NCBI GenBank assembly: GCA_965112155.1
Contig: OZ218102.1
Source of the DNA: Podarcis liolepis
Lineage: Eukaryota
Direction: 5' to 3' (one strand)
DNA: 64,000 bases
Below, in pieces: positions 27,480-30,700 of the stretch. The stretch's first letter is position 1. Every line of letters starts with the position of its first letter. Below the pieces are notes generated by a model. The model was given only the letters and a program-made list of their open reading frames with translations. It ran no database searches and was not told the DNA's origin. Made by a program: the position numbers and the translations under genes.

Positions 27480-27625
27480 CTATAGAAATCTTAACTCACC
27501 ATGAAGATTCACCGTTGCGAAGAAATACTTTCATTGTGAGAGACTGCTTTGATGTCTAAGGCATAAGATGCGGGGCTTTTCAGCTGCCTCTGTCTAGATT
27601 ACCTTGAGAGCAACGGGATAGACAT
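27480..27625 (-). other. ZIC4: Candidate alternative terminal (3'UTR) exon of ZIC4; start defined at 27625, far end not defined
   Basis: Strong acceptor ttaatttttcatttgcttgttacAG|ATGTCTATCC at 27626/27625. Joining it to the donor TG|GTACGT at 30185/30184 gives TG+A = TGA straight after ...NLSE. Confidence 0.65.
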
Positions 27626-28859
27626 CTGTAACAAGCAAATGAAAAATTAAAGGTGATTAGCCTACACATCCAAAAACCGCTTCTGCAAAGAAAGAAATCA
27701 AGAAGAAAAGGGAGAGGGAGGAGGAGGGCCGAGGGACGGAGCCGGGAGGGGGCAACCCAACTCCAGACAAGGTGGAAGCATCTTTCGCAGATGGCCTCCA
27801 TCCATCCATCTCTACCTTCTCATTTCCACGACGGCTCCACTAGATCAGAGGGAGTAAACGAGCAGCAGCAGTAATGGCAACGAATATCTTGTTTTAATTT
27901 TTATCCTGAGAATCGGGACGGGATGGTTATTTCTTTGTTTGCTATGTTTCGTCCATTTAACTCGGCGATCTATTAAGGATCTCTCGCTGAGGCAGTGAGA
28001 AGGAATAGGGAACCAAGTCATGCACATTGTTCAAAAGGTAGATAGGTGATAGATGGATTGATACCCAAATAGGTAGACTTTCTTCTATTTTTATTTTTTA
28101 ATTTTTTAAATGTCAATGCCTGAATGACACCAACCGCCCCATCTTCAGACGTAAGTACCACGGTGTTCACAGTTCACTGGGATGTCCCAATGAACTCAGT
28201 GGAACTTACTTCCGAGTAAATAAGCATATGGTCCTGCTGCACAAGGAAGATAGAGAGAAAGAAAGAGTTCAGAAACGTGGGAATGTTAAGGAAGGTGGGA
28301 GAGGATATCTTGTTTTGATATTATCCCTCCTCACTCACGCTCAGAGCACATTCCCTTTGGAGCCACATTCCCCTGTGTGTCCATTCTAGGCAACAGGAAA
28401 ATGTTGTACTTGACTGCTCTAGGGATAATACATTCCACAAGAAATAAGAAATTTCTGTTGCTGGTGGTGTGTACATGGCTAACCCAGAGACTGGGCTGGA
28501 CGTTTTGCTTCACTCTCCTTCACTGAAGTGAAGGAAATGGCTTTGTAGAAGTGTTTTGGCTAAGATCTTAGAGCGCCTACAGACAAATGGGCCTTTCCAT
28601 AGTTTAAAAATCGATTAGAATGAACCACGCCCCCTCCCTCATTCCTAAATATACTGCCTGTAAATAAGTTTCATTGAAGTATATGGGTCTTACTACAAAG
28701 TGATGCGTTTAGGAGCTACAATCAGTAAATGAAATCCATATAATAATATTTCCACAAGCATTCCACCCCCCCCCCCGTCTGGGGAATTCGCTAGAGACAA
28801 GGACTCACATAGGGCTGATAAGAATCATATAGCTTTAGAGACCTCGACATATGTTCAAG

Positions 28860-30069
28860 ATTTTAAAACCATTTTATTTTTACCTTTACAAAAAATAATA
28901 ATTAATATTTCGAATTGTTATTTTTACATAACTACTGTTGTGCGTTTGAAAACCAGACCACCACTGGGTTTACACCACGGGTTCAGAAAAAATCGACACG
29001 TCGTGAATCCTTTTGGACAATCCAAGCAACTCAACACAATTACGTCACTCATAACAACTCCCCCCCCCCTTCTCTCCAATTAACATGGATCTCACCTTCC
29101 ATCCACTAAGGAATCACAAGAACTCACAATTCAACAGAAATAATGCGAGGGAGGGGGAAGAGAAAAGGAGAATATGTTTATGCATTTAAATCCATTACTA
29201 GTGTAAATTAAAATGTACCATAAATCATTAAGCCACCCTTGGGTCTGTTTTATTAGTGACAAGTGGGAAGAATATACTGGTGAAAAAGGGGCAGTAAAGA
29301 GATTCCCCCCCCCCGAAAAAAACGTCAACTGAACTGGTAAATTAATCAAAGTATTTAATTGATCGATTTGTTGTACAGTTCGGTAACAAATAATATATTT
29401 ATAGATACTGATGTTCCTTTTTGGAAAAAAAGCACACGCACACAGCCCCCCCCCCACCCCCGCCAAGAAACCCAATTAAAATCCAGACACTGGGCTAATA
29501 AAACTGTCCAAGAAAAAACACCATCACAAGATACCAGCACCGACGATCGCAGCTGTACAGCTAGAAATCCGTATTAAAACACTTTGGTTCATTGATACAA
29601 AAGGATGTTTCCATTCAAATCGAGGCCATTGTAAACGTATGGGAAGGAGTTGGTCCGCGGAGTCTGCCCTGGGAGGGTGTAAAATAAAAAGAGCTCATGG
29701 AAAGAGGTGCGGGGAGGTGGAGGTGGCGGGAGGGGGGGGGTCTGCTGTCCTCTGTGCCATAATAAATACAAAACGGGGGTGGGGGAGAGAGGGAGGAGGT
29801 TTGTCCACCCCCCCCCATGTATCTTCTCTCCGATAGCCTGTGCAGCATTTCTGATCGAAGGTGACTGACTGGGGGAAGAGGGAAGAGGCTGGGGAGGGGG
29901 GGAGGGGGAGGGGGCTTGCTCCCTAGGCCTGGGATCGATTTCCGCCCCTCCCCCAAGAACCGGGCCTTGCCGACCCGCCGTTCGTCCAGTGTGAGCCAAG
30001 GATCCACAGCACCCCGAAAAGAACAATGCAGTCTCGCCGCCGCCGGCGGGCCATCCTACCGTATTGACT
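28860..30069 (-). other. ZIC4: 3'UTR of the read-through ZIC4 form with candidate AATAAA signals
   Basis: Minus-strand AATAAA (plus-strand tttatt) near 29249-29254 and at 28873-28878, in AU-rich sequence. Confidence 0.45.
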
Positions 30070-30700
30070 TTAATAAGTGGGCCGGGGCTCGCAGTTCGTG
30101 TAAGCGGCCTCTCCCGGGTGAGGTGACGGAGAGTTACTGGGTGGAGTCGGGATGCCGCTGGCCCCTGAGCTCTGACACACGTACCATTCGCTCAGGTTGG
30201 CTGCCGCCTGGGTGGAGGAAGCCGCTGCGGGAGGTGGTGGTGGCGGCGGCGGCGGCGGCGGCTGAGGGGGCTCCCGGCCGCAGTCCGACGACGGCGACAC
30301 CAGCGACGGGGTGGACGACTCGTAGCCCGAGCTGGGAGGTGGGGACTTGCAGTGGACTTTCATGTGCTTCCGCAAGGAGCTGGGGTGCGTGTAGGACTTG
30401 TCACAGCCTCGCACTTTGCAGTTGTAGGGCTTGTCGCTCGTGTGCACGTGGGAATGCTTCTTCCTGTCGCTGCTGTTGGCGAAGCGGCGCTCGCAGCCTT
30501 CGAACTCGCATTTGAAGGGCTTCTCGCCTGCAAGGAAAAGAGGGAATCCAGGGAGACTTTGCGTAAAGGACCAGGGTGGGGAAAGGTGCGGGTGTGCGGG
30601 TTTTATTGGGGTGGCGGGGTGGCGTGTCTGCAGGTCACAGGTTATTGAGCGATGAGCTCTGTGTCGCCCTCGCCCCACCTCGATTTCCCAGCAGTGGCCG
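29930..30700. promoter_or_regulatory. Intragenic CpG island over the ZIC4 last coding exon
   Basis: GC and CpG content are visibly much higher than in the flanks. Confidence 0.6.
30070..30527 (-). CDS. ZIC4: ZIC4 second coding exon (ZF4-ZF5 and C-terminus, read-through form ending ...EWYVCQ...PRPTY*)
   Basis: Acceptor cttttccttgc[78 protein letters not shown]... The KKHSH and CKVRGCDK residues are ZIC4/5-type. TAA at 30072-30070. Confidence 0.94.

Follow-up and report, generated by a model that had tools for sequence, protein, structure and literature searches.

A codon-dictated splice donor in the EWYV motif of ZIC4 and its probable use in removing a C-terminal tail in lizards

The ZIC4 and ZIC1 locus

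The window is a 64,000-nucleotide stretch of Podarcis liolepis DNA (assembly GCA_965112155.1, contig OZ218102.1) and carries a head-to-head gene pair, ZIC4 on the minus strand and ZIC1 on the plus strand. The closest named protein matches of the minus-strand gene are ZIC4, and the best-matching proteins carry that name, in agreement with the first-pass annotation. The plus strand carries ZIC1-type exons from 51257. The domains PF18366 (zf_ZIC) and C2H2 are matched on near-identical Podarcis proteins, which marks the product as a ZIC zinc-finger protein.

Two ZIC4 exons encode the zinc fingers discussed here.

35450 to 36638, minus strand: large ZIC4 exon, from the long N-terminus to zinc finger 3, with a donor at 35450
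30070 to 30527, minus strand: ZIC4 exon with zinc fingers 4 and 5 and, when unspliced, the entire C-terminal tail and stop (151/151 amino acids)

The large exon is identical to Podarcis raffonei X2 at 394 of 397 amino acids, compared with 349-357 identical residues in five lizards from other families, which marks the gene as a ZIC4 of Podarcis type. When read through, the finger-4/5 exon encodes 151 amino acids, all of which are identical in P. raffonei X2 (P0136) and P. muralis X2 (P0141). The window also has seven N runs totaling 1,131 bases (63-190, 8851-8990, 12161-12308, 14876-15038, 15964-16171, 31373-31576, and 49209-49348), and the exons discussed are all untouched by them.

The donor within the EWYV codons

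30178 to 30189, minus strand: E-W-Y-V codons with the internal donor (last exon base 30185, GT at 30184-30183)
30070 to 30184, minus strand: putatively ancestral tail coding sequence (WYV plus 35 amino acids), intronic in the spliced forms, from comparative records
54681 to 54695, plus strand: the E-W-Y-V-stop codons at the C-terminus of ZIC1, which hold the same latent donor, from sequence

A donor hidden in the codons GAA TGG TAC GTG had been proposed, and these codons are found at 30189-30178 on the minus strand, with GT at 30184-30183. If unspliced, the frame continues for 38 further residues to ...PRPTY and a stop at 30072-30070. When spliced in silico to an exon beginning with A, TG and A create a stop codon and the protein ends in ...AAANLSE, as had been claimed.

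The donor agrees with the consensus at 7/9 positions. As a chance control, equal-scoring donors were counted; the minus strand of the window has 146 of them, 10 of which fall between 30527 and 27000. All 16 synonymous encodings of EWYV generate a G/GTAYGT donor scoring 6 or 7 of 9. The donor is thus dictated by the amino acids, so that its being conserved does not indicate that splicing has been selected for. The intronic hexamer of this donor also serves as the ZIC1 exon-1 donor in the window. Nine acceptor-like sites lie within 4 kb downstream of the latent donor at the end of ZIC1.

Acceptors, downstream exons, and poly(A) signals

27500 to 27627, minus strand: distal acceptor and conserved 126-nt distal-exon segment that gives the A of TGA (plover match from 27626; mammal model tails aligned over 27626-27501)
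27682 to 27684, minus strand: further acceptor-like site with 17/20 pyrimidines and a 76-nt AG-free zone, lying 57 nt upstream of the distal acceptor
29524 to 29670, minus strand: proximal acceptor and third-tail frame of 48 residues (AG 29670-29669, 516-nt intron)
27494 to 27499, minus strand: strong donor ending the conserved distal segment (8/9 consensus match)
29249 to 29254, minus strand: AATAAA, candidate proximal poly(A) signal, by motif
28873 to 28878, minus strand: AATAAA, candidate proximal poly(A) signal, by motif, and the one in the first-pass annotation
25748 to 25824, minus strand: two AATAAA, the nearest canonical candidates for the distal 3' end, by motif

The distal acceptor AG occupies 27627-27626, with the first exon base an A at 27625 and an intron of 2,559 nt, as originally described. 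Both proximal AATAAA motifs (29254 and 28878) fall inside this intron. The acceptor had been called strong, and this stands in part: in its favor, it has an AG-free zone of 34 nt and, 22 and 32 nt upstream, pentamers resembling a branch point, but its pyrimidine content (14/20) is at the cut-off used here for an acceptor-like site (at least 14/20 pyrimidines and no upstream AG). The minus strand of the window has 143 such sites. Twelve of them lie in the interval 27000-30184; across all 143, an initial A that would complete TGA is found at 34. The donor and acceptor motifs by themselves are at chance level and are no evidence for a splice. With 146 equal donors and 143 acceptor-like sites on the strand, motif strength was dropped as evidence, and the support for the splice is therefore comparative.

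The site at 27682 is pyrimidine-richer than that at 27625 and also begins with A. Since it would give the same LSE-stop protein, an LSE ending does not identify the acceptor used. Comparative support for 27682 was looked for, and none was found.

The first-pass annotation envisaged a two-state, on/off switch. Podarcis models also join the same donor to a nearer acceptor, at 29668, which produces a third C-terminus made up of W and 47 new residues. These residues are identical (47/47) in eight Podarcis records (X1, X3, X5, X6). The 48-residue tail was found only in Podarcis, in 8/57 squamate records, and in no other genus in the set.

The distal exon in birds and mammals

The exon at 27625 corresponds to bird and mammal sequence, as had been suggested for mammals. 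The last 10 amino acids of a plover protein (Charadrius XP_009888744.1) match 10/10 at 27626 and are followed by a stop; this 10-residue end occurs once among the six frames of the window. Three Rhinolophus records have C after LSE and then match the frame from 27624 at 7/10 amino acids, as would result if the junction were the same but the first exon base another. Ten more tails, from placentals, fall between 27626 and 27495, and in six the alignment begins at 27626. The mammalian matches are weak (E 0.003-0.05), and longer queries gave matches of equal level at unrelated places (22 records near 23300 and 25 near 25400), so the distal-exon argument rests on the bird match and on the matches coinciding with the exon at either end. 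The initial tblastn search was too permissive, and its exact-match part alone was used.

ZIC4 models ending at LSE

A total of 414 proteins was gathered from 30 chosen clusters, with up to 15 members listed per cluster, and 408 were assigned to clades by source names. The six others are unnamed or unrelated proteins (P0025, P0046, P0082, P0110, P0120, and P0154). The records are automatic, mutually related models, unevenly sampled, and are to be read as such rather than as independent observations.

An LSE or TSE ending is present in 6/57 squamate records, which represent five species (Podarcis raffonei, P. muralis, Pogona, Heteronotia, and Liasis). It is also present in 2/26 turtle records, 22/63 bird records (28 of the bird records being incomplete or other), all four monotremes, 8/15 marsupials, and 26/52 placentals. 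Among amphibians, it is seen in 2/40 frogs (Spea and Discoglossus), the single caecilian, and none of five salamanders. No fish record ends this way (0/128), an absence from models that need not extend to RNA. Read-through accounts for 41 of the 57 squamate records, and the spliced form may be minor in squamates.

Podarcis X4 (P0134, P0135) contains the exon of the window exactly, and its protein stops at NLSE. The coexistence of two endings that the proposed switch implied is borne out in models, with LSE-stop and read-through forms annotated within Podarcis, Pogona, Heteronotia, Liasis, Gopherus, and opossum. Same-species pairs of models include Podarcis X2/X4, Pogona X1/X2, Heteronotia X1/X2, and Liasis T1/T3. 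The ending ...ADLSE, which the first-pass annotation gave for human ZIC4, is seen in the primate records P0282, P0283, P0287, P0288, and P0292. RefSeq already lists the LSE-stop protein for lizards, birds, and mammals. NEWYV is still encoded in 20/52 placental records; as far as these models go, the data show that ZIC4 genes still encode the motif and that splicing removes it.

Two further models have unusual ends. In P0183, from the turtle Lepidochelys, LSEW is followed directly by the final three tail residues, and the model ends in NLSEWPSY. An electric-eel model that diverges after LSE (P0265) is a lone prediction fused to unrelated sequence and was counted as "other".

Evolution of the read-through tail

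The tail is present in 126/128 fish, 11/11 invertebrate, and 6/6 ZIC5 records. A length of 35-37 amino acids after WYV is found in the read-through records of squamates (39/41), turtles (17/17), and frogs (37/37), and in the records of cartilaginous fish (15/15) and ray-finned fish (98/108). Bird tails after WYV measure 24-168 amino acids, those of marsupials 76-80, and those of placentals 42-283.

Tail motif content was scored as [TS]PP within 16 amino acids after WYV. The motif is present in squamates (41/41), turtles (17/17), frogs (37/37), ray-finned fish (96/108), and invertebrate Zic (11/11), and is absent from all 38 read-through records of birds (0/12), marsupials (0/6), and placentals (0/20). 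This test is narrow, as ZIC5 mostly fails it (1/6) and bird tails retain prolines. Marsupial tails (P0165-P0174) have a long alanine expansion, keep the last residues, and are otherwise recognizable. Pfam has no model for the tail, which is short and low in complexity.

By this narrow motif test, the tail appears intact in fish, amphibians, squamates, and turtles and degenerate in birds and mammals. Record comparison points to ancestral coding of the stretch that is now intronic, as in intronization. Read most simply, the tail would be ancestral, the splice would have been adopted in tetrapods, and constraint would have been relaxed where the spliced form became usual. A 121-sequence survey is cited in PMC7403390, and that of Tohmonda et al. 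(2018) on Zic conserved domains may cover the tail.

N-terminal variants of ZIC4

36089 to 36199, minus strand: 111-nt exitron that removes 37 amino acids including a ZOC-like motif, from isoform pairs
43975 to 44059, minus strand: short-N-terminus exon, ATG at 44020, spliced to the exitron acceptor at 36088, from P. muralis X5
47753 to 47718, minus strand: upstream ZIC4 exon with an alternative N-terminus, which matches bird, turtle, and lizard models at their MKDDRLD start

Two N-termini combined with two C-termini had been taken to allow four isoforms. This number is too few, given three C-termini and long, exitron-spliced, and short N-termini, in addition to the upstream exon at 47753. The short-N exon is identical to P. 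muralis X5 at 16/16 amino acids. The combination of the short N-terminus with the LSE stop was not among the Podarcis records listed.

Pairs of isoforms that differ by exitron removal of 36-37 amino acids occur in cyprinids, a goodeid fish, two frogs, opossum, and Podarcis. The strict ZOC consensus is given as RDFL-x(1-2)-RR in PMC2988786, and ZIC4 is described as being without ZOC in PMC7403390. The strict consensus is present in 46/110 ray-finned, 7/15 cartilaginous, 3/26 turtle, 2/15 marsupial, and 0/52 placental records. In squamates, the ZOC-like motif is found in a relaxed version only (14/57).

Functional background and related systems

NEWYV is described as a motif whose function is not known and which is conserved in all ZIC members but ZIC4 (PMC4564895). 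ZIC1 without its last 11 residues, including NEWYV, raised the proportion of disrupted Xenopus embryos from 8% to 66% (PMC4564895). Last-exon truncations of ZIC1 in craniosynostosis likewise lose the NEWYV end and gain activity, but they arise by mutation rather than by splicing and in another paralogue (PMC4564895, PMC13328068).

Human ZIC3 offers a parallel in the cryptic splicing of exon 3T(170), which likewise takes place inside the W codon; whether a junction stop or a new tail results is set by the acceptor (PMC11470249). The junction-spanning stop p.W465* is produced from a ZIC3 exon 3 donor that is normally inactive. The W codon is three residues from the protein end, and three residues are removed, versus 38 in lizard ZIC4. 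The p.W465* protein is nuclear, stable, and abundant, and exceeds the wild type on an SV40-luciferase reporter (p = 0.0051). W465Cfs*26, made with the same donor and another acceptor, has reduced activity (PMC11470249). The ZIC3 case differs in being pathological, triggered by a deep intronic variant, and, as that text describes it, inactive in wild-type cells (PMC11470249). Judged by its position, the ZIC3 donor would be the same codon-encoded donor. ZIC3 isoform 2 (exons 1-2-4) is another instance in which an alternative last exon alters a ZIC C-terminus, but it is described as a whole-exon swap through alternative acceptors, without an internal donor (PMC11470249).

Since ZIC1 without its NEWYV-containing end and ZIC3 p.W465* both gain activity, the prediction is that LSE-stop ZIC4 acts as a transcription factor under less restraint. 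Isolated ZIC sites are reported to be hardly activated by ZIC4 (PMC7403390), which speaks against a simple transfer from ZIC1 and ZIC3. The third tail of Podarcis could act differently from the LSE-stop end.

Annotated LSE-ending ZIC4 proteins of Podarcis (XP_053246186.1, XP_028587069.2), Pogona (XP_078245257.1), and Pongo (XP_002814195.2) reach the same end point as the predicted splice. The Podarcis LSE isoforms are automatic models that hold the exon of the window exactly. In the literature searched, which was mostly non-subscription, no paper was found on the ZIC4 splice choice or its function, or on the evolutionary reading given here. From PMC4467302 and PMC2908108, the one pertinent point is a remark of 2010 that no alternative splice forms of zic genes had been described.

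Composite (bleeding) terminal exons contain an internal donor that competes with a proximal poly(A) site, and intronization of coding sequence is likewise a known process. In the models, the ZIC4 exon resembles a composite terminal exon, since read-through makes it the last exon and use of the donor makes it an internal one; an internal GT and a downstream AG are present, and both products are annotated in one species. It is unlike such exons in two respects: the motif that is spliced away itself dictates the donor, and the stop codon arises at the junction.

Interpretation and alternatives

The preferred reading is that the W-Y-V donor is spliced to the distal exon and that the stop made at the junction removes an ancestral 38-residue tail, with a less restrained protein as the predicted outcome. 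We put its probability at roughly 0.7. That the splice itself is real in lizards is very likely on comparative grounds. That it amounts to a regulated functional switch is more doubtful and somewhat less likely than not, the activity data being those of the paralogues ZIC1 and ZIC3.

The best-surviving alternative is low-level leakage in lizards, in which a donor forced by the codons sometimes joins any downstream acceptor and its products have no separate role. Pairing of the donor with other acceptors suits this explanation, namely 29668 in Podarcis and apparently that of the turtle model NLSEWPSY, as does the restriction of the 48-residue tail to Podarcis (8/57 squamate records) and the normal inactivity of the same position in ZIC3, as reported in PMC11470249. 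Conservation of the distal exon among lizard, bird, and mammal and the LSE-stop form being the usual primate protein argue against leakage, which is judged unlikely.

A slightly less probable alternative concerns the fate of the spliced transcript. The stop had been predicted to escape NMD by spanning the last junction, but this is unproven, as the 8/9 donor at 27500 ends the distal segment 126 nt later. If that donor is used, the junction stop lies 126 nt before another junction and NMD is expected, so that the 126-nt exon would be internal and the distal splice would mainly lower expression. In 10/10 mammalian models that cross the segment, a codon starting with G comes next and similarity ends thereafter, which is what splicing at 27500 would produce, with the caveat that these models are mostly low-quality or single predictions and may owe their form to the gene finder. 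Against this alternative, a 1,005-nt CDS has been cloned for human ZIC4 (PMC7403390) and the protein has been detected (PMC2838823), which fits a stable LSE-stop mRNA.

In annotation pipelines of this kind, numbered isoforms generally need transcript support. Carry-over of LSE-stop models from mammal or bird proteins to lizards, with the junction unused there, is compatible with the chance-level motifs and with lizard evidence made up of models rather than reads, but it is improbable given a numbered isoform beside the read-through form in five squamate species versus 0/128 fish under similar pipelines.

Returning to the preferred reading, the proposed mechanism would proceed as follows. The donor, which the codons make unavoidable, the acceptors, and the predicted products can all be read from the window. 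Public models show three outcomes in Podarcis, namely read-through, the distal splice (LSE-stop), and the proximal splice (48-residue tail). Read-through would keep the tail and presumably use a proximal poly(A) site. Competition between proximal polyadenylation and a weak internal donor may set the ratio, as in composite terminal exons, and loss of WYV may relieve a negative-regulatory function, by analogy with the paralogues. The latent donor would have been adopted in tetrapods, with squamates and turtles retaining the two forms. The spliced form would have become the usual one in birds and mammals, where the tail would then have degenerated; the description of human ZIC4 as lacking NEWYV would be accounted for in this way.

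A broader reading is tentative and, taken jointly, rather unlikely. All ZIC genes would carry the W-Y-V donor, and tetrapod ZIC4 would have turned it into a regulated switch that deletes an inhibitory tail. The exitron or short first exon would delete the ZOC-like motif at the other end, mammalian ZIC4 would be without both motifs through splicing and not by ancestral absence, lizards and turtles would be a switchable intermediate, and the latent donor would be a disease liability in human ZIC1, ZIC2, ZIC3, and ZIC5.

Significance

Surprise is limited, as the isoform is already annotated. The finding matters because the loss of NEWYV from ZIC1 causes gain-of-function disease, and ZIC4 is described as the sole member without NEWYV. 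The latent donor predicts that acceptor-creating variants downstream of other ZIC genes could remove the motif, as in ZIC3. The ZIC4 tail would offer a traceable case of coding sequence becoming intron, and lizards and turtles may provide a natural plus/minus pair for testing the NEWYV motif.
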